Shown here in pieces: positions 2,959 to 25,464 of a stretch of 32,000 bases of DNA; the first letter of the stretch is position 1; every line of letters starts with the position of its first letter. A model generated the notes under the pieces. That model ran no database searches and had not been told where the DNA came from. It saw only the letters and a list, made by a program, of their open reading frames with translations. This DNA is from an uncultured Gammaproteobacteria bacterium (lineage in GTDB: Bacteria > Patescibacteriota > Patescibacteriia > UBA2591 > UBA6264). The stretch spans positions 43,040-75,039 of the forward strand of contig CAZDOL010000001.1 in assembly GCA_964507075.1 (NCBI GenBank). Direction: 5' to 3'. The position numbers and the translations under genes are program-made.

Positions 2959-3642
2959 CTACTCTAATAGAAATCTCTTAATTCGCTTATTTTCCTTTAT
3001 TCTCTTTAAAGAATCTTTAGCAAACCCTTTATAAGCCTCCGCATTGCCAAATTGGTCCAATACAATATCCTTTTCACAAAAACCTTTCTTATTTCTATTG
3101 TTTTTATTAGAATCACTCTCAACGTATTCGTCCCAGCTTGATTTAAAAAGTTCAGTGGCCGAGCCACTGAACTTTTCTAAATTATGTACCTTATAATTTA
3201 AATTAATATAAGTACTTAAGTGCAATAAATATTCATTAGAACCTATATGAATCGCTTGGTATTTCCCTTGACACAATGACCCGCTCCGTTTATATTTTTT
3301 ATTAAAATATTCTGTATATCCAGTGCCTAACCTATGCATAAATTTTTGAATCCCCTTGTCAACTAATTGTTTCAAAATAAAATGATAATGATTCGGATTT
3401 AAGCAATAACAAACAAAATTAACCAATTTTTTCTTTTTGGAAAGTTCAGTGGCCGAGCCACTGAACTTTTTTCTCAATCTCTTTGCTTCATAAATACTAT
3501 CAATTGGATTCATAGTATTAAATTCTTCCATGCTCAAAAAAAATCTATTTAAATCTTCTTGGCATTCAAAAATTATACGCTTATCTACTCCACGATTATA
3601 GATATGATAATATTCGTCATTAACAAATTTAACTTTTCTCAT
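2959..3642 (-). CDS. IS200/RayT-like HUH (Y1) tyrosine transposase (REP-associated tyrosine transposase-like)
   Basis: 227 aa. YHIYNRG N-terminus, HUH motif NPNHYHFIL, FMHRLGTGYTEYFNKKY...G, tyrosine motif STYINLN, and a WSS-like SSWDEY. Flanked and internally punctuated by palindromes of one family. Confidence 0.75.
   Translation of the reverse strand: MRKVKFVNDEYYHIYNRGVDKRIIFECQEDLNRFFLSMEEFNTMNPIDSIYEAKRLRKKFSGSATELSKKKKLVNFVCYCLNPNHYHFILKQLVDKGIQKFMHRLGTGYTEYFNKKYKRSGSLCQGKYQAIHIGSNEYLLHLSTYINLNYKVHNLEKFSGSATELFKSSWDEYVESDSNKNNRNKKGFCEKDIVLDQFGNAEAYKGFAKDSLKRIKENKRIKRFLLE
3146..3176. repeat. REP-like palindrome, variant CAGTGGC, inside the transposase-like CDS (encodes KFSGSATELF)
   Basis: AAAAGTTCAGTGGC-CGA-GCCACTGAACTTTT, a perfect 14-bp stem. 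The same about 30 nt recurs at 3441..3469. Confidence 0.9.
3441..3469. repeat. REP-like palindrome, variant CAGTGGC, inside the transposase-like CDS (encodes KFSGSATELS)
   Basis: AAAGTTCAGTGGC-CGA-GCCACTGAACTTT, a perfect 13-bp stem, read in the same frame as the copy at 3146. Confidence 0.9.
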
Positions 3643-3673
3643 ATATATATTTATATCTCTTTTAAAGACTAAT

Positions 3674-3702
3674 AAAGTTTGGTGACCGAGCCACCAAACT
3701 TT
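3674..3702. repeat. REP-like palindrome, variant TGGTGAC/GCCACCA, directly after the gatB stop codon
   Basis: AAAGTTTGGTGAC-CGA-GCCACCAAACTTT with one A/C mismatch in the stem. Lies between the gatB stop (3703) and the transposase-like gene start (3642). Confidence 0.85.
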
Positions 3703-5202
3703 TTATAAAAATTTTGTTAATAACTTCTTGATTAAATCTGGGCTTATTTGCCCTTTTGTTTTTTTAACTGTTTGGCCTATTAAAAATTGAATGGCATTAG
3801 GATGACCCTTTTTGATTTTATCCACTATTTCAGAATTATTTTTAATAACATCTTGAACAATAACTTCTATCTTTTCTGATTCAATAATTTCCAGAGAACC
3901 AAACTCTAACAACAAAGAGCCAGCATCTTGTCCTGTTTGAAACATTTTTTTCAAAATTTTTCGACCTAAAATATTAGATAACTTTTTCTGATATATTAAA
4001 ATAATAAACTCAGTAAAATTTTCACAAGAAACACTGGATTCTTTTTTATTAGATTCTTGTGAAAAAACTAAATAATAATTGATGAACCAATTGGCAATTA
4101 ATCTAATTATTTTTTTCTTATTTCTTTGCCATATCTCTGGTTCACTAGCGTCCATTCCTTCACAAGAACTAATCCAGTCTTGCATTTTTTTGATAACCTC
4201 TTCTATGAAATACAATCGAGTTGGCAATGCAGTCAATATTCTAATTTCATCTTCTGAAAAGCAATATTTTTTTCGCCAACGCTTCCTTTGCTGAGCTGGC
4301 AATTCGGGCAAAGATTTGCTTAATTTTTTAATATCAAATGGAAATTCTTTGGATTTGGTAAAAAAAACTGGTAGATCTGGCTCCTTAAAATATCTATAAT
4401 CTTTGGTCTTTTCTTTACTTCTCTGCTCAACTGTAATTCCTTTTTGTGCATCCCAACCACGCGTTATCTCTATTTTCTGCACTCTGTTATCGCGCCACAG
4501 CTCAGTCTGTCTTTTGATTTCATACCTTAGAGCATCTTCTACAGCCTTAAATGAGTTAAGGTTTTTTATCTCTGTTTTGGGATAAAGATTATCTCCGTTG
4601 TTTTCTGGTCTTAAAGAAATGTTGACATCACACCTCATCTGCCCATTTTCCATTTCTGCATTGGAAACATTTAATGCCCGAGCTATCTCCTGTAATTCTT
4701 GTAAAAAAAATTTAGCCTGAGAAGGACTCTCTATATCCGGTTTAGTTACTATTTCAGCCAAAGGCACTCCTGCGCGATTAAAATCCAATAAGCTATAACC
4801 TTCTTTTGAATGCAGTAATTTAGCAGTATCTTCCTCAATATGTATTCTCTCTAAATTAATTCTTTGTCCCTTGATGTCCAAATGTCCTCCAATAATTAAA
4901 GGAGAATAATATTGACTAATCTGATATCCTTTGGGCAAGTCTGGATAAAAATAATTTTTACGATCAAACCAAAAACTTTCCGCTACCTCTCCCTTTAATG
5001 CTAACCCTAAAAGCAAAACTTTTTCTATTACTTTTTTGTTTAAAACTGGCAAAACCCCAGGATGACCCAGGCAAGTTGGACAAACATTAATGTTGGGTAA
5101 AACACCCTGAACCTTATTCAAGCAAGAACAGAATAATTTGCTCTTTGTGTTAAGTTCCAAATGAATTTCTAAGCCAATAATAGACTTTAAGTTAAGATGC
5201 AT
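3703..5202 (-). CDS. gatB: Asp/Glu-tRNA amidotransferase subunit B
   Basis: 499 aa. IGLEIHLELNTKSKLFCSC...CPTCLGHPGVLPVLN and RCDVNISL signature regions, with a C-terminal YqeY-like tail. Confidence 0.9.
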   Translation of the reverse strand: MHLNLKSIIGLEIHLELNTKSKLFCSCLNKVQGVLPNINVCPTCLGHPGVLPVLNKKVIEKVLLLGLALKGEVAESFWFDRKNYFYPDLPKGYQISQYYSPLIIGGHLDIKGQRINLERIHIEEDTAKLLHSKEGYSLLDFNRAGVPLAEIVTKPDIESPSQAKFFLQELQEIARALNVSNAEMENGQMRCDVNISLRPENNGDNLYPKTEIKNLNSFKAVEDALRYEIKRQTELWRDNRVQKIEITRGWDAQKGITVEQRSKEKTKDYRYFKEPDLPVFFTKSKEFPFDIKKLSKSLPELPAQQRKRWRKKYCFSEDEIRILTALPTRLYFIEEVIKKMQDWISSCEGMDASEPEIWQRNKKKIIRLIANWFINYYLVFSQESNKKESSVSCENFTEFIILIYQKKLSNILGRKILKKMFQTGQDAGSLLLEFGSLEIIESEKIEVIVQDVIKNNSEIVDKIKKGHPNAIQFLIGQTVKKTKGQISPDLIKKLLTKFL

Positions 5203-6568
5203 TTTTAGCGGTTAAAATTACGGGAATAGTCATTAATATAATTTGTAAATCAAATAATAAAGACCAGTTCTCTATATAATAAATATCTAATTTTGCTTCT
5301 TCTTCAAAAGATAATTTTGAACGACCAGAAATTTGGGGTAAACCAGTTAACCCAGGTTTAATGGCTAATAACTGCTTGTGATGTAAGGCATAATTAGCTA
5401 TTTCTTGGGGTTCGTGAGGACGCGGACCAACCAAGCTCATTTCTCCATTGATAATATTAAATAACTGAGGTAATTCATCCAAACTTGTTTTGCGCAAAAA
5501 ACGACCAAAACGAGTTATTCGCGGATCATTTTTCATTTTAAACAAGGGCCCCTCCCTTTCATTATGTTTTAATAACTCCTTCTTGAGTTTTTGTGCGTTA
5601 GGAATCATAGAGCGAAATTTATAAAGCTTAAAAGGATGATTTTTTTGACCAATTCTTTTAAGGCTAACAAAAACCGGTCCGCGAGAATCAATCCTAATAA
5701 TAACAACCAAAATTAAAAAAACTGGAGACAAAAGTATTAAAGCCAAAAAAGCGATGATTAAATCAAAAAAACGTTTGACAATTCTTCCCCAACCACAAAG
5801 AGCTGTTTGTCCTAAAGTAATAATTGGAACGCCATTAATTGCTTCCATCTGCACATTACTTGCTAAAGAACCAAAAATGTCAGCCGCATATCTAAAAATA
5901 ATTTGATGCTCCTGGCAAAAATCAATAATTTTCAATACTTCTGAGCGCTCTAAAAGAGGGTCTGTTTGGATAATTTGATTTATCTCTCTTGTCCGCCCCA
6001 ACCATTTCTCTTGTAAATTTGAAAATGATTTGGGATTACCTAAAACTTGATACCCAACCCCAGAATTATTTTGTAAATAATTAATAATTTGTTCTGTGGT
6101 TTTGTCTTTTCCTAATATTAAAACTGGTTCTAGATTTTTTCCCTTTCTATAAGCTGACAATTCTAAAACATGAATCAACGCCCTTCCCATACTAACAAAA
6201 ATAATAGAAACTATCCAAGCTGCTAAAATAATAAAACGGGAAGAAAAATATTCTCCTTTAAAAAAAATAAAAGCCACAATAAGCATTATACCCATAGAAC
6301 AAGCTAAAAATATTTTAGGAACTTCTTTGGAAAACCTGCGTTTCAATCCCAGATTATAAAGACCAGATAAAATAAAAATGCCTAGCCAAAGCAAAGCAAT
6401 TAAAAGAATTGAAATAAAATATTCCTTAAATGGAATTTCGTAAATAACCGGTCGCAAGCTTGTGAATGCAGTAAAACGTAAGAAATAAACAAAAACTCCG
6501 GACAAAATCAACATAAGATAATCTGCGGGTACTAAAAAAGTAGCAAAAAATAAATCATTTCTTTTCAT
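5192..6568 (-). CDS. Polyprenyl-phosphate glycosyl-1-phosphate transferase (bacterial sugar transferase, WbaP/EpsB-like)
   Basis: 458 aa. Multiple N-terminal TM helices plus a C-terminal catalytic region: KRFFDLI...LSPVF, GPVFV, RFGRFLRKTSLDELPQLFNIINGEMSLVGPRP. Overlaps gatB by 11 nt. Confidence 0.85.
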   Translation of the reverse strand: MKRNDLFFATFLVPADYLMLILSGVFVYFLRFTAFTSLRPVIYEIPFKEYFISILLIALLWLGIFILSGLYNLGLKRRFSKEVPKIFLACSMGIMLIVAFIFFKGEYFSSRFIILAAWIVSIIFVSMGRALIHVLELSAYRKGKNLEPVLILGKDKTTEQIINYLQNNSGVGYQVLGNPKSFSNLQEKWLGRTREINQIIQTDPLLERSEVLKIIDFCQEHQIIFRYAADIFGSLASNVQMEAINGVPIITLGQTALCGWGRIVKRFFDLIIAFLALILLSPVFLILVVIIRIDSRGPVFVSLKRIGQKNHPFKLYKFRSMIPNAQKLKKELLKHNEREGPLFKMKNDPRITRFGRFLRKTSLDELPQLFNIINGEMSLVGPRPHEPQEIANYALHHKQLLAIKPGLTGLPQISGRSKLSFEEEAKLDIYYIENWSLLFDLQIILMTIPVILTAKNAS

Positions 6569-18108: not shown

Positions 18109-18439
18109 CTTTTTTTTCTTTTAGACTTATGCTCCTAACTATTTTAGCAATTCGGGTATCCATAATATGTAAACGAACAGTAAAATAAAAAATAAAATAA
18201 AAAATAGCCGCCAAAGAAAAATAAACCACTACATCTGCGCCTCTGCCGACCCCCAGAAAACGAGCTAGATAATCAGTAGCTTCGGGATAAATTACTATTG
18301 TGCTAGCTATTAACCAAAAAAAGAGCCAAATTAAAAAATTAGTAACTCTAATCTGTTGATTCTTTAATCTCCTCCCTAAACGAATAAAAATTATTAAAAC
18401 AAAAAGTAAAAATAATATTTTAAATAAAATCATAGTCAA
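18098..18439 (-). CDS. DUF2304-like small membrane protein
   Basis: 113 aa, 3-4 TM helices, GVGRGADVVVYFS motif. Typical partner of a GT2 glycosyltransferase. Confidence 0.6.
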   Translation of the reverse strand: MTMILFKILFLLFVLIIFIRLGRRLKNQQIRVTNFLIWLFFWLIASTIVIYPEATDYLARFLGVGRGADVVVYFSLAAIFYFIFYFTVRLHIMDTRIAKIVRSISLKEKKDEN

Positions 18440-22468: not shown

Positions 22469-23053
22469 TTATTTTTTATTTATTATTTTTTTATTTCTAT
22501 TCCAGTTATTATTTTGTTTATGTCTTGTTGTAACTTTTTTTCGGATCAAAAAATCGCTCCCCCTTCCTCCTAAATCCGAAAAATCATCCACTTTTTTTAT
22601 TAGATTAGAGGAGGTTGTCCTCTTAAAAGACAATAACTCAACTCGGCAACCCTTATTTTCCTTTAAATATTGAACCAAAGGAATAAAGTCGCCGTCGCCA
22701 GTAACTAAAACCACTACATCTAATTTATCAGCTAACTTGATAGCATCCACCGCCAAACCAACATCCCAGTCCGCTTTTTTCATTCCTCCAGGAAATATTT
22801 GTAAATCCTTAACCTTTAATTCAAAGCCATATTTAGAAATGGTTTCAAAAAATGCCTGTTCTTCGGAAGTATTAGAACAAATTACATAAGCAATGGCTCT
22901 AATGAGTTGCCTATCTCCTACAGCTACGCTCAAAATTTTATCAAAATTTACATTAGCGTTGTACAAATTTTTGCCAGAATGATACATGTTCTGGACGTCA
23001 ATAAAAACGCCCACTCTCTGATCTTTATGCTGTTGATCATTACGTTTAGACAT
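22469..23053 (-). CDS. NYN-domain (LabA/DUF88-like) predicted ribonuclease
   Basis: 194 aa. VGVFIDVQNMYHS and VVLVTGDGDFIPLV motifs, with a Lys/Asn-rich C-terminal tail. Confidence 0.7.
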   Translation of the reverse strand: MSKRNDQQHKDQRVGVFIDVQNMYHSGKNLYNANVNFDKILSVAVGDRQLIRAIAYVICSNTSEEQAFFETISKYGFELKVKDLQIFPGGMKKADWDVGLAVDAIKLADKLDVVVLVTGDGDFIPLVQYLKENKGCRVELLSFKRTTSSNLIKKVDDFSDLGGRGSDFLIRKKVTTRHKQNNNWNRNKKIINKK

Positions 23054-23519: not shown

Positions 23520-24449
23520 ATGCCTACTGAAATAAAAAAATTAATCACTGAATTTTTAGAATATTTAGAAATTGAAAAAGGTTGCAGTCCTTTAACTATC
23601 AGGAATTATGATTTTTATTTGCAAAGATTTGTTAAACAATCTAAAATAAACTCTCCAAAAGAAATCACCAAAGAAACTGTTAGACAATTCCGCCTTTGGT
23701 TATCGCGTTTAAAAAATTATCATCAGGATAATTTATCTTTAGCAACCCGAAACTATCATTTGATAGCCATTCGTTGTCTTCTTAAATATCTGGCCATTAA
23801 AGATATTCCCTCTTTAGCTCCTGAAAAAATTGAACTAGCCAAAACAGGAGAAAGGCAAATATCCTTTTTAGAGGGGGATGATTTAGAAAAATTACTTGAC
23901 GCTCCCCTTCAAGTGAAACAAAAAGAAATTATTACCTATCGCGACAAAGCTATTCTGGAACTGCTTTTTTCAACTGGCTTAAGGGTTTCTGAATTAACCA
24001 ACCTCAAAAAAGAAAACATAAATCTCAAAAAAGATGAATTCAGCATAAAGGGCAAGGGCCAAAAATGGCGTCTGGTGTTTCTGTCTAACCAAGCCAAATA
24101 TTGGTTAAAAAAATATTTAGAAAAAAGAACCGACATTGACCCAGCACTTTTTATACGTTATGATAGGGCATCAAAAAATAACCAAAAATCACTAGGTATT
24201 ACTCCTCGTTCTGTCCAAAGATTGGTTCAAAAATATTCTAAAGTTGCCGGCTTAACTCGCAAAATCAGTGTTCATACTCTTCGGCATAGCTTTGCCACCG
24301 ACCTATTGTCTGGTGGAGCCAATTTACGAGCAGTTCAAGAATTGTTAGGACATCGAAATATAACTACTACTCAAATTTATACTCATGTCACAAATCAACA
24401 TTTAAGAGAAATATACCAAAATTTTCACGACCAAAAAAGAAAAAAATAA
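23520..24449 (+). CDS. Tyrosine recombinase, XerC/XerD family
   Basis: 309 aa. N-terminal SAM-like core-binding domain (FLEYLEIEKGCSPLTIRNY) and catalytic residues in TGLRVSEL, HTLRHSFAT and GHRNITTTQIYTHV. Confidence 0.85.
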   Translation: MPTEIKKLITEFLEYLEIEKGCSPLTIRNYDFYLQRFVKQSKINSPKEITKETVRQFRLWLSRLKNYHQDNLSLATRNYHLIAIRCLLKYLAIKDIPSLAPEKIELAKTGERQISFLEGDDLEKLLDAPLQVKQKEIITYRDKAILELLFSTGLRVSELTNLKKENINLKKDEFSIKGKGQKWRLVFLSNQAKYWLKKYLEKRTDIDPALFIRYDRASKNNQKSLGITPRSVQRLVQKYSKVAGLTRKISVHTLRHSFATDLLSGGANLRAVQELLGHRNITTTQIYTHVTNQHLREIYQNFHDQKRKK

Positions 24450-24494: not shown

Positions 24495-24535
24495 ATGTTC
24501 CTATGTTCTCATGTTCAAATGTTCTCATGATTCAT
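24495..24535. repeat. Tandem 8-bp repeat (ATGTTCCT ATGTTCTC ATGTTCAA ATGTTCTC ATGATTC AT)
   Basis: ATGTTC begins at 24495, 24503, 24511 and 24519, with a degenerate unit at 24527. Abuts the tRNA-Arg 5' fragment copy. Confidence 0.85.
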
Positions 24536-24548
24536 GCCCCTATAGTTC
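24536..24548 (+). other. Duplicated 13-nt copy of the tRNA-Arg 5' end (GCCCCTATAGTTC)
   Basis: Identical to 24652..24664 (acceptor 5' strand plus the first D-stem strand of the intact tRNA-Arg). Confidence 0.85.
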
Positions 24549-24651
24549 CCTCCTTCGCTCAAATTTGCATTTGAGCTTCGGAAGGGCAAGCATCAACATT
24601 AAAAGGTTTGCTCGCCCATCGAAGCTTCGATGTAAATCGAAGCGTAGTTGG

Positions 24652-24726
24652 GCCCCTATAGTTCAACGGATAGAACGAGAGACTTCTAATCTCTAGATAG
24701 AGGTTCGATTCCTCTTGGGGGTACCA
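24652..24726 (+). tRNA. tRNA-Arg (anticodon TCT), CCA encoded
   Basis: Hand-folded cloverleaf. Acceptor GCCCCTA/TGGGGGT (two G-T wobbles), D arm GTTC-AACGGATA-GAAC, anticodon arm AGAGA-CTTCTAA-TCTCT, T arm AGAGG-TTCGATT-CCTCT, discriminator A, CCA. Confidence 0.9.
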
Positions 24727-24732
24727 TTTCAT

Positions 24733-24770
24733 GGCGGCTATAGTTCAATGGTAGAACAGCGGATTGTGGG
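24733..24770 (+). pseudogene. Truncated tRNA-His (GTG): 5' half only, ending at the anticodon loop
   Basis: G-1, acceptor GCGGCTA, D arm GTTC-AATGGTA-GAAC, anticodon stem GCGGA and loop TTGTGGG. No matching 3' stem, T arm or TAGCCGC acceptor strand anywhere downstream. Confidence 0.7.
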
Positions 24771-24790
24771 TTTATCCACAGCACGATGTT

Positions 24791-24819
24791 TTGACATCTA
24801 TATAAAATTAGGCTATAAT
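24791..24819 (+). promoter_or_regulatory. Perfect consensus sigma-70 promoter, TTGACA-17-TATAAT, 7 nt upstream of the HNH gene ATG
   Basis: TTGACA at 24791..24796, a 17-nt spacer, TATAAT at 24814..24819, ATG at 24827. No Shine-Dalgarno sequence, so the transcript is predicted to be leaderless or nearly so. Confidence 0.7.
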
Positions 24820-24826
24820 AGTAACC

Positions 24827-25303
24827 ATGCCTTATGTTAGATGTAAAATCTGTGATAAAAAATTCTACACCAAGCCATCGTACTTAAAACTTGGTTGGGG
24901 AAAATATTGCTCAATAAAATGTAAACGCATAGCCCAGTTAAAGGGGAAATTTGTAAAATGTCATACTTGCGGCAAAAAGACATGGAAAGCTCCCAAAGCA
25001 TTGAAGCATTCAAAAAGCGGGAATTTCTTTTGTTGTAAATCATGTCAAACCATATGGAGGAATCAATATTATTCTGGACCAAAACATCCTAATTGGAAAG
25101 GCGGAGAACATAGGCAATATAGAAAAATATTGCTTAAAAATGGCAAAACACCAGTTTGTCAAATCTGTGGACTAAAAGATAAAAGAGTGCTTATAGCACA
25201 TCATAAAGATAGAAACCGAAAAAATCAGACCATTGAAAATCTTATATGGTTATGTTTAAACTGTCATCACCTAGTGCATCATTACAATAAATCTATCCAT
25301 TAA
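24827..25303 (+). CDS. HNH endonuclease with N-terminal zinc-ribbon repeats (free-standing homing-endonuclease-like)
   Basis: 158 aa. CxxC pairs (CKICDKK...CSIKC, CHTCGKK...CCKSC) and an HNH core CQICG...HHKDRNRKNQTIENLIWLCLNCHHLVH. Confidence 0.85.
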   Translation: MPYVRCKICDKKFYTKPSYLKLGWGKYCSIKCKRIAQLKGKFVKCHTCGKKTWKAPKALKHSKSGNFFCCKSCQTIWRNQYYSGPKHPNWKGGEHRQYRKILLKNGKTPVCQICGLKDKRVLIAHHKDRNRKNQTIENLIWLCLNCHHLVHHYNKSIH

Positions 25304-25313
25304 TAATTATTAT

Positions 25314-25388
25314 GGCGACCTTGGTGTAGGAGTAGCACAAAAGCCTGTGGAGCTTTCGGCAGGGGTGCAAATCCCCTAGGTCGCCCCA
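25314..25388 (+). tRNA. tRNA-His (anticodon GTG) with encoded G-1:C73 and CCA; atypical T loop
   Basis: G-1, acceptor GCGACCT/AGGTCGC, D arm GTGT-AGGAGTA-GCAC, anticodon arm AAAGC-CTGTGGA-GCTTT, T arm AGGGG-TGCAAAT-CCCCT, discriminator C, CCA. Starts 10 nt after the HNH stop codon. Confidence 0.8.
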
Positions 25389-25393
25389 TAAAA

Positions 25394-25418
25394 ACATCTC
25401 TTTTTTAGAGGTGTTTTT
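25394..25418 (+). terminator. Intrinsic terminator after tRNA-His
   Basis: ACATCTCT-TTTTT-AGAGGTGT hairpin (one G-T pair) followed by TTTT. Confidence 0.65.
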
Positions 25419-25464
25419 GTGTATAAAAAATACTTGCCCATGTCGGACCTAGGCAAGACTATTA

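Follow-up and report, generated by a model that had tools for sequence, protein, structure and literature searches.

The window analyzed here, a 32,000-nucleotide stretch of the patescibacterial contig CAZDOL010000001.1, carries a compact cassette in which a promoter, a gene for a 158-amino-acid HNH protein, and a complete tRNA-His(GTG) gene stand behind the 5' part of a second, truncated tRNA-His gene. On the basis of comparison with related genomes, we consider it likely (probability of roughly 0.7) that the cassette is a free-standing HNH homing endonuclease specialized on tRNA-His genes. In the lineage of the window, an import of approximately 612 bp overwrote the resident tRNA-His gene from position 38 to its 3' end, leaving the first 37 nucleotides as a dead scar, and the resident terminator now ends the new transcript. 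The features concerned are as follows.

24733..24769 (+): 5' remnant of the resident tRNA-His gene, from G-1 to G37 (sequence, nhmmer, and alignment to relatives)
24770..~25381 (+): window-specific imported segment, ~612 bp (blastn against eight HNH-free relative loci, and alignments)
24772..24780 (+): TTATCCACA motif, perfect 9-mer match
24791..24819 (+): sigma-70-type promoter TTGACA-17-TATAAT, 12/12 match (-35 at 24791-24796, -10 at 24814-24819)
24827..25303 (+): HNH endonuclease gene, 158 amino acids (open reading frame [ORF], Pfam, PHROG, invariant residues, and AlphaFold)
25314..25388 (+): complete tRNA-His(GTG) of foreign type, with G-1 at 25314 and body at 25315-25388 (ARAGORN and Rfam)
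25387..25421 (+): intrinsic-terminator-like hairpin and T-run (fold of -18.1 kcal/mol, z=-7.1)

Resident tRNA-His remnant and imported segment

The sequence-only reading of this DNA had described a tRNA-His 5' half starting at 24733, and we recovered it as a remnant that begins six bases 3' of a tRNA-Arg(TCT) gene and ends at 24769. It comprises G-1 (24733), the acceptor 5' strand GCGGCTA (24734-24740), a D arm (GTTC/AATGGTA/GAAC), and the 5' strand of the anticodon stem (GCGGA) followed by TTGTGG (24764-24769). A hidden Markov model (HMM) built from 80 tRNA-His genes matched positions 1-37 of the remnant (nhmmer, E=4.7e-7), and Rfam returned a partial, sub-threshold tRNA match (24739-24800, 17.3 bits).

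Relatives of the window were picked by means of the neighboring XerC-like recombinase, giving six loci at 95, 92, 91, 91, 85, and 75% identity (loci are designated by L numbers below). No HNH gene was detected by tblastn in any of these six loci. The gene order of the window, PNPase-NYN-S15-xerC-tRNA-Arg-[tRNA-His]-473/476-amino-acid gene-DUF5689-LamininG, is kept in full or in part by the 85-95% relatives. The uninterrupted GCGGCTA-type tRNA-His gene that the sequence-only reading had proposed to look for in related genomes stands at the same place in these relatives (L087, L089, L091, L085, and L221), and the sequence of the intact HNH-free allele is GGCGGCTATAGTTCAATGGTAGAACAGCGGATTGTGGTTCCGCTGACGAGGGTTCAATTCCCTCTAGCCGCCCCA. 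It lies 9-20 nucleotides (nt) after tRNA-Arg in L087, L089, L091, and L221 and 1.8 kb further on, behind an unrelated insertion, in L085 (XerC 95%). The remnant is identical at 37/37 positions to the intact alleles of L089 and L221, in agreement with the earlier claim that a resident tRNA-His was disrupted and its function taken over by a cassette-borne copy. None of the relatives examined carried a half-gene without the HNH gene, one of the findings that would have told against that claim.

When the window was aligned by blastn to the eight HNH-free loci, homology ended at 24769 and restarted at 25380-25383, within ...CGCCCCA. Because the homology of the relatives stops at 24769 and resumes at approximately 25381, the event was a replacement and not a simple insertion, and the imported segment overwrote positions 38 to ~70 of the resident gene. 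Thus, of the insertion at the anticodon loop postulated earlier, the border stands, but a simple insertion does not. The segment contains the TTATCCACA motif, the 12/12 sigma-70 promoter, the 158-amino-acid HNH gene, and the complete foreign-type tRNA-His. The terminator, which had been assigned to the cassette, does consist of a hairpin and a T-run; however, the same sequence is found 3' of the intact tRNA-His in L087, L085, L091, and L221, as is the flank beyond it, and its presence in HNH-free relatives identifies it as resident flank. Directly past the terminator, in the part of the flank common to the HNH-free relatives, lies a DnaA-box-like 9-mer with one mismatch (TTATACACA, 25418-25426 on the minus strand).

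As described earlier, the complete tRNA-His(GTG) is quite different in sequence from the resident one and follows the HNH gene closely: ARAGORN placed it at 25315-25388, its G-1 lies 10 nt past the HNH stop codon, and it has C73 and an encoded CCA. Rfam scored it at 58.1 bits, compared with 69.9 bits for the tRNA-Arg(TCT). It is identical to the resident allele at just 51/80 aligned columns and more closely resembles tRNAs linked to HNH genes elsewhere, namely those of L005 (65/75, 87%), L084 (64/75, 85%), and L004 (61/76, 80%). These comparisons indicate that the complete tRNA-His of the window is foreign in origin. It would presumably be the sole source of tRNA-His in the cell and, since it lies 3' of the HNH gene, would be made from the cassette promoter in one transcript with the nuclease mRNA.

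The T-loop of this tRNA contains an unusual G55 (GGGGTGCAAATCCCC). An atypical type of tRNA-His with G55 in place of U55 (GTGCAAAT) is encoded in the window and by 15 of 80 HNH-linked genes, for example in L004, L005, L015, L024, L072, and L084. The D-loop lacks GG in 13/15 of these genes, while GG is kept in 61/65 of the other tRNAs; the absence of both GG and U55 implies that the canonical G18/G19-psi55/C56 elbow pairs are missing in these 13 genes.

Two other explanations are contradicted by these data. We give hardly any credence to a split or intron-containing tRNA-His whose halves are joined at the RNA level by a group I intron or by trans-splicing. The break does lie in the anticodon loop, where group I introns of bacterial tRNAs sit, and a hairpin follows it; however, the window holds no 3' half complementary to GCGGCTA, only ~56 nt and 10 nt of noncoding sequence surround the ORF, and the ORF is followed by a complete tRNA-His that is independent of the break. 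A search of the whole window for the matching 3' half (TAGCCGCC) found none in tRNA-like surroundings, and the sole same-strand match to TAGCCGCC, at 18205, was rejected as a 3' half because it lies within coding sequence and has no tRNA features. Likewise, no intron or other RNA family was found by Rfam in the window at E<=10. Site-specific integration by the neighboring tyrosine recombinase (23520-24449), with the tRNA gene as its attachment site, is very improbable. This gene of the Phage_integrase family lies 200 nt 5' of the tRNA pair, and tRNA genes are classical attachment sites. However, the recombinase is found at the same place in all HNH-free relatives, outside the segment, which marks it as an XerC/D-like housekeeping gene; the imported segment itself encodes no recombinase and is not flanked by direct repeats; and integrating elements of this kind displace the 3' part of a tRNA gene, whereas here the 5' part was retained.

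The HNH protein and its control region

The HNH gene reported by the sequence-only reading is supported by several lines of evidence. The protein has two N-terminal Cys4 zinc-ribbon modules, with weak matches to TRASH, MYM, and YacG-like domains, and a C-terminal HNH domain, predicted to be of the beta-beta-alpha-metal type. Nine residues are invariant in 41 homologues (C111, C114, H125, H126, N138, C143, C146, H147, and H151), and they place the His-His...Asn...His motif between two CxxC zinc pairs, as in the HNH superfamily. The window protein itself scored 21.0 bits against the Pfam HNH cut-off of 21.4, and 23/41 and 27/41 family members matched HNH (PF01844) and HNH_3 (PF13392), respectively, at E<0.01. 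The match to the PHROG family phrog_1271 ("HNH endonuclease") is full length (E=2e-15), and profile matches in the PDB were to HNH domains only, including those of a group II intron maturase and IscB. An AlphaFold model (predicted local distance difference test score of 86) has strands at 122-126 and 139-143 followed by a helix at 144-153; a Foldseek search against the PDB with this model gave no significant match, only weak partial ones (Cap5 HNH and McrA, E>0.1).

Full-length homologues with ~30% identity are free-standing HNH genes of phages, located between terminase and portal genes (HCTV-5) or between holin and amidase genes (a Geobacillus phage), which are classical positions for homing endonuclease genes. 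As a correction to the parallel with phage homing genes drawn earlier, the HNH family described here is chromosomal and extends throughout the candidate phyla radiation (CPR) rather than being phage borne. Among viral contigs, no relative exceeded 32% identity, and phage records held no close relative. The exact protein of the window is confined to this species (24 contigs), the next best match among 5.8 billion proteins being 75% identical, and the wider superfamily comprises 3,800 clusters at E<=1e-10. The gene is also free-standing by its surroundings: there is no Rfam intron and no 3' exon, and the ORF is equipped with a promoter and a start of its own.

The perfect TTGACA-17-TATAAT promoter noted earlier proved to be the sole 12/12 match in the region (24791-24819); its -10 hexamer ends 7 nt before the HNH ATG, and GTTTATCCACAG lies between the remnant and the promoter. 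Across the family, the promoter scores at least 10/12 in 54/82 loci, and the distance from the -10 hexamer to the ATG is 6 nt in 49 loci and 7 nt in 12. This distance is short and fixed and no Shine-Dalgarno sequence is present, which implies that the HNH mRNA is probably leaderless or near-leaderless; it is probably also cotranscribed with the tRNA-His.

Upstream of the promoter, the CCACAG core of the TTATCCACA motif lies exactly 9 nt 5' of the -35 hexamer. CCACA[AG] is present in 35/82 loci, nearly always 9 nt from the -35 hexamer, compared with 0.68 expected from shuffles, and loci of the Microgenomates type have ..CAGA[AG] at the same position. The control region of the family can thus be written as [TA][TA][AT]TCCACA[AG] - 9 nt - TTGACA - 16 to 18 nt - TATAAT - 6/7 nt - ATG. 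In sequence, TTATCCACA is identical to the consensus DnaA box (the 9-mer TTATNCACA bound by DnaA), although the box used by the CPR may differ. The motif also forms an inverted repeat with TGTGG of the remnant (hairpin of -12 kcal/mol, z=-2.8), because its TCCACA core is the reverse complement of the TGTGGA of the tRNA-His anticodon loop. Such remnant-motif repeats are 9 bp long in both L008 and L052, while that of L011 has 7 bp and includes a compensatory change. As for its role, the motif may be bound by DnaA, may act as an operator to which the HNH protein binds, or may be what is left of an anticodon stem, kept under constraint.

Three other interpretations of the control region were rejected. 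Complementarity of the motif to the anticodon loop of the linked tRNA is not accompanied by covariation at positions 32/38 and is contradicted by L004 and L006. A CRP-like palindrome, TGTGG-N6-CCACA, has spacings that vary from 2 to 8 nt and lacks its left half wherever tRNA-Arg abuts the cassette. A T-arm relic as the source of the promoter would fit in its spacing, but the tRNA HMM stops by position 44 and there is no 3' T-stem strand.

A metagenome scan for CCACAR-N9-TTGACA-N17-TATAAT gave, among the 120 matches listed, 3 HNH cassettes, the remainder being unrelated, and 9 with the full TTATCCACA; these matches include many copies of one gut repeat, and the scan says nothing on the specificity of the arrangement for the cassette, although it did draw attention to the likeness of the motif to a DnaA box. 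Two metagenome contigs (L142 and L186) carry three tandem TTATCCACA boxes directly 5' of TTGACA-17-TATAAT, the last of which lies 9 nt from the -35 hexamer, so that its geometry equals that of the cassette.

The cassette family across Patescibacteria

A profile scan with one genome per GTDB species yielded 360 species loci of this HNH family, all labeled or recognizable as Patescibacteria, and we inspected the best 80 of these. They belong to many Parcubacteria and Microgenomates lineages and lie on bacterial chromosomes with housekeeping neighbors. A tRNA-His(GTG) gene follows the HNH stop codon on the same strand in 78/80 loci, at a distance of 7-116 nt (L048, with 762 nt, is an exception); the two remaining loci lie on contigs that end before a tRNA-His could appear. 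The usual upstream neighbor of the cassette is tRNA-Arg(TCT). Remnants of a tRNA-His 5' end are present in 20 loci, including the window and L004; they begin with position 1 and break off within positions 28-44, the ATG following ~50-57 nt later, and partial remnants occur in six further loci. Several sequence types of tRNA-His are represented among the remnants. No remnant is left in loci whose tRNA-Arg abuts the cassette, which suggests that the loci form a decay series.

The closest homologue of the window protein, in L004 (75% identical), lies in an unrelated context, after metK, and yet the module there has the same parts: a 5' tRNA-His part, promoter, HNH gene, complete tRNA-His, and a similar terminator. 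The S-adenosylmethionine synthetase gene 5' of that cassette (L004, 1444-3969) is interrupted by an intein in which Pfam marks a LAGLIDADG endonuclease domain, a second selfish element beside the HNH cassette.

The ORF is intact in all 80 inspected loci, and the ratio of nonsynonymous to synonymous substitution rates (dN/dS) for HNH genes of related pairs is 0.01-0.13, indicating strong purifying selection. Equally low values were obtained for the gyrB- and nusG-like neighbors of the cassette when the same pairs of genomes were compared. In L050/L061 and in L040/L043, the HNH proteins are 87% identical, compared with 55-72% for flanking proteins, and the synonymous rate (dS) of the HNH genes is lower; this fits a cassette ancestry more recent than that of the hosts. 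An apparent further case, L223, in which the HNH seemed to be 100% identical although the host was 79% identical, was discarded, as it represents the same organism as L052 with a pilM deletion.

A second lineage, L052, was tested through relatives found by means of PilM. These relatives, L224 and L225, have no HNH gene, and their tRNA-Arg is directly followed by tRNA-His. Presence and absence of the cassette at one locus, with sharp borders, were therefore found in both the window lineage and the L052 lineage. Foreign flanking sequence also accompanies the HNH gene in both, as expected from co-conversion: in the window it is the tRNA-His downstream that is foreign, and in L052 both the tRNA-Arg and the remnant upstream. 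The complete tRNA-Arg of L052 is foreign looking, unlike that of its HNH-free relatives, and its tRNA-His remnant resembles the GGTGTA-type tRNAs linked to HNH genes elsewhere.

Several observations weigh against a homing endonuclease dedicated to tRNA-His. The sample is biased against decayed copies, since the inspected loci are those with the best protein matches. The closest sampled HNH protein is just 75% identical, so the donor is not among the sampled genomes, and the downstream tRNAs only loosely track HNH clades. Constraint at the level of housekeeping genes exceeds what is expected for a purely selfish, fixed homing gene. Moreover, the polarity of L052 is reversed with respect to the window, in that the tRNA-His of L224 and L225 matches the complete HNH-linked gene of L052 and not its remnant; there, it is the remnant that is foreign, whereas the complete tRNA-His represents the resident type. 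In the same locus, a resident-type tRNA-Arg(TCT) 5' remnant precedes the complete tRNA-Arg (2726-2785 and 2806-2880); this remnant spans HMM positions 1-52 (E=1e-8) and breaks off at the T-loop. The junctions of L052 thus imply that breaks are not confined to the tRNA-His anticodon loop and that remnants can travel with the cassette. Finally, the proposed cut site is deduced solely from where the remnants end (positions 28-44). Tract ends that vary, and remnants that are either resident or carried along, would nevertheless be expected from repeated homing with variable co-conversion, and the mosaic flanks mean that the variety of remnants is no simple count of how many invasions took place independently.

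Some of these points would also suit an HNH gene that is a mere passenger, moved by natural transformation and homology-facilitated illegitimate recombination between diverged tRNA clusters, with no role in cutting or in the choice of site. Left junctions do occur in tRNA-Arg as well (at position 13 in the window, at the T-loop in L052, and in L021, where a tRNA-Arg(TCT) remnant of positions 2-21 lies 5' of the complete tRNA-Arg), the reversed polarity of L052 makes for mosaic flanks, and competence is known in Patescibacteria. A passenger, however, would not sit directly 5' of tRNA-His in 78/80 loci from many CPR lineages, nor would it keep invariant catalytic residues and a dN/dS of 0.01-0.13, and the remnant ends cluster in the anticodon arm. 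We therefore regard the passenger explanation as unlikely.

A further explanation is that the HNH-tRNA-His unit is an old, vertically inherited operon that serves the host, for example by regulating or protecting the tRNA locus or by excluding foreign DNA, and that HNH-free relatives have lost it. A dN/dS equal to that of housekeeping neighbors, the integrity of every inspected ORF, and the conservation of the promoter, the leaderless start, and the TTATCCACA-type motif at a fixed 9 nt would all be in keeping with domestication. Against it, six relative lineages of the window genome and two of L052 have no HNH gene, and the intact remnant-type tRNA-His of the close relatives of the window cannot be regenerated from the window arrangement by deletion. 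The family is patchily distributed, with 360 loci in a radiation (the CPR) of many thousands of species, the closest homologue lies in a different genomic context, and the phage relatives are typical free-standing homing genes. We judge a domesticated operon to be improbable.

For the homing reading, which we prefer, a mechanism can be outlined from the arrangement of the loci. The HNH protein would cut HNH-free tRNA-His alleles in or near the anticodon arm, and the break would be repaired from cassette-bearing DNA, probably acquired by natural competence, which has been shown in Patescibacteria (Saccharibacteria) (PMC10633639). Short, conserved stretches of tRNA sequence would anchor the recombination, the remnant or tRNA-Arg on the left and the tRNA-His 3' end plus terminator on the right, and flanking tRNA sequence would be co-converted over variable distances. 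The linked tRNA-His would escape cutting because it differs at about one-third of its positions. As an essential function is then supplied by the cassette, the arrangement would behave like a cleave-and-rescue element. Since the tRNA-His lies behind the promoter and ORF of the nuclease, loss of the promoter or of the cassette would cost an essential tRNA, and this cost may, speculatively, contribute to the strong constraint.

Taken to its full extent, with all parts holding jointly, this would make the family a naturally occurring gene drive of the cleave-and-rescue kind, directed at an essential tRNA gene that is present in single copy, a proposal that we regard as tentative. If it is true, the nuclease destroys the resident tRNA-His and the cassette gives a divergent, resistant copy that is expressed only via the promoter and ORF of the nuclease; the host could not cheaply shed or inactivate the nuclease, which would explain the housekeeping-level purifying selection. 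The DnaA-box-like site 9 nt from the -35 hexamer would tie expression to the replication state, and spread over most Patescibacteria lineages would be a main cause of their unusually diverse tRNA-His genes.

Free-standing homing endonucleases within phage tRNA gene clusters are known from T4 (SegB) and T5 (F-TflI/II/IV), SegB being a GIY-YIG enzyme that recognizes an 11-bp T-psi-C motif of tRNA genes (PMC2330249, PMC13096335). As in those systems, whose homing co-converts neighboring tRNA genes, the endonuclease gene stands alone between tRNA genes and would be transcribed with them. In contrast to the phage-borne enzymes, and to the GIY-YIG enzyme SegB, the present family is of the HNH type, chromosomal in Patescibacteria, tied to one tRNA species, and equipped with its own consensus promoter, and it leaves a truncated resident tRNA beside a complete replacement. 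In intronless homing of T-even phages (SegF/SegG and MobE; cited in PMC13096335), the enzyme cuts near its own insertion site and repair copies the gene with flanking markers. A free-standing enzyme that cuts the endonuclease-free allele is likewise proposed here. However, homing in T-even phages involves homology on both flanks and a clean allele swap between coinfecting phages, whereas the left join here is nonallelic, leaves a 5' gene fragment, and is found in hosts that are distantly related bacteria.

Mobile ORFs that carry a foreign gene end are known from fungal mitochondria, in Allomyces atp6 and in Glomus atp6, atp9, cox2, and nad3 (PMC3630166). There, as here, and on evidence of the same kind, an endonuclease ORF brings a divergent piece of the target gene, and the native fragment is unexpressed and near-identical to that of sister species. 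The fungal ORFs differ in that they encode LAGLIDADG or GIY-YIG enzymes in organelle genomes, bring the C-terminal part of a protein gene, and displace the native fragment downstream, whereas the cassette brings a whole tRNA gene, the native 5' fragment stays upstream of it, and the 3' part of the native gene has been deleted. An intron-encoded homing endonuclease of bacterial chromosomes is also known that targets one specific tRNA gene in its anticodon region; in that case splicing restores the tRNA, whereas here there is no intron and a second complete gene would restore function. The intron-encoded enzyme has a PD-(D/E)XK fold.

No prior description of an HNH-tRNA-His cassette was found in the literature, and this would be the first homing endonuclease family described as chromosomal, Patescibacteria-wide, and dedicated to one tRNA gene. 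It shows a way in which distant lineages can come to exchange an essential tRNA gene present in single copy, a point of importance for genome annotation and tRNA-based phylogeny in the CPR. Its compact natural design of promoter, leaderless nuclease, and rescue tRNA would be akin to engineered cleave-and-rescue drives, and it would offer a small zinc-ribbon-HNH protein with a predictable DNA target for which intact and replaced alleles have been identified. Strong purifying selection on a supposedly selfish gene is a puzzle in itself.

The tRNA-Arg neighbor and nearby repeats

The tRNA-Arg gene that precedes the tRNA-His remnant is itself preceded by a fragment and an insert, as follows.

24536..24548 (+): 13-nt 5' remnant of tRNA-Arg(TCT), GCCCCTATAGTTC (direct repeat family D1; aligns with the tRNA-Arg start and upstream spacer of L085)
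24549..24651 (+): structured 103-nt insert that separates this remnant from the complete gene (no counterpart in relatives by blastn)
24652..24726 (+): complete tRNA-Arg(TCT) of the resident type (ARAGORN; Rfam, 69.9 bits; 74/74 identical to L085)

Compared with its relatives, the window has a 116-nt insertion after tRNA-Arg position 13, which consists of the 103-nt insert and a second copy of nt 1-13. The 13-nt remnant forms a second scar, at the neighboring tRNA gene. The region that contains the insert (24535-24655) folds with a minimum free energy of -45.9 kcal/mol; no second copy of the insert was found in the window or in the fetched loci, and it matched no Rfam family. The layout of fragment, insert, and complete tRNA parallels that at tRNA-His, but it has no ORF.

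In L085, an insertion of ~1.8 kb with a DUF4116 gene (3571-5400) parts tRNA-Arg from tRNA-His. Its ends (CCCTCCCTGCC...GGAAGGG and ...GCTTGCTCGCCATCGCAGGCGGTGAAATACG) resemble those of the 103-nt insert, which hints that the insert of the window is a miniature derivative from a family of tRNA-associated mobile elements. The stretch from xerC to the tRNA-Arg remnant includes four tandem 8-nt units (ATGTTCNN, 24495-24526), which are kept in L085 (~3455-3490). Palindromic repeats (ATGTACGAGGTCGAACCTCGTACAT), paired with an identical linker, occur on both sides of the tRNA-Arg/tRNA-His pair in L091 (~4990-5070 and ~5330-5410) and look like a miniature inverted-repeat element. Genes for NYN-domain proteins, predicted ribonucleases, are present in the window (22469-23053), in L052 (3724-4296), and in L225 (8775-9338); in these two unrelated CPR lineages, the NYN gene lies no more than one or two genes from the tRNA-Arg/tRNA-His pair, with or without the HNH cassette.

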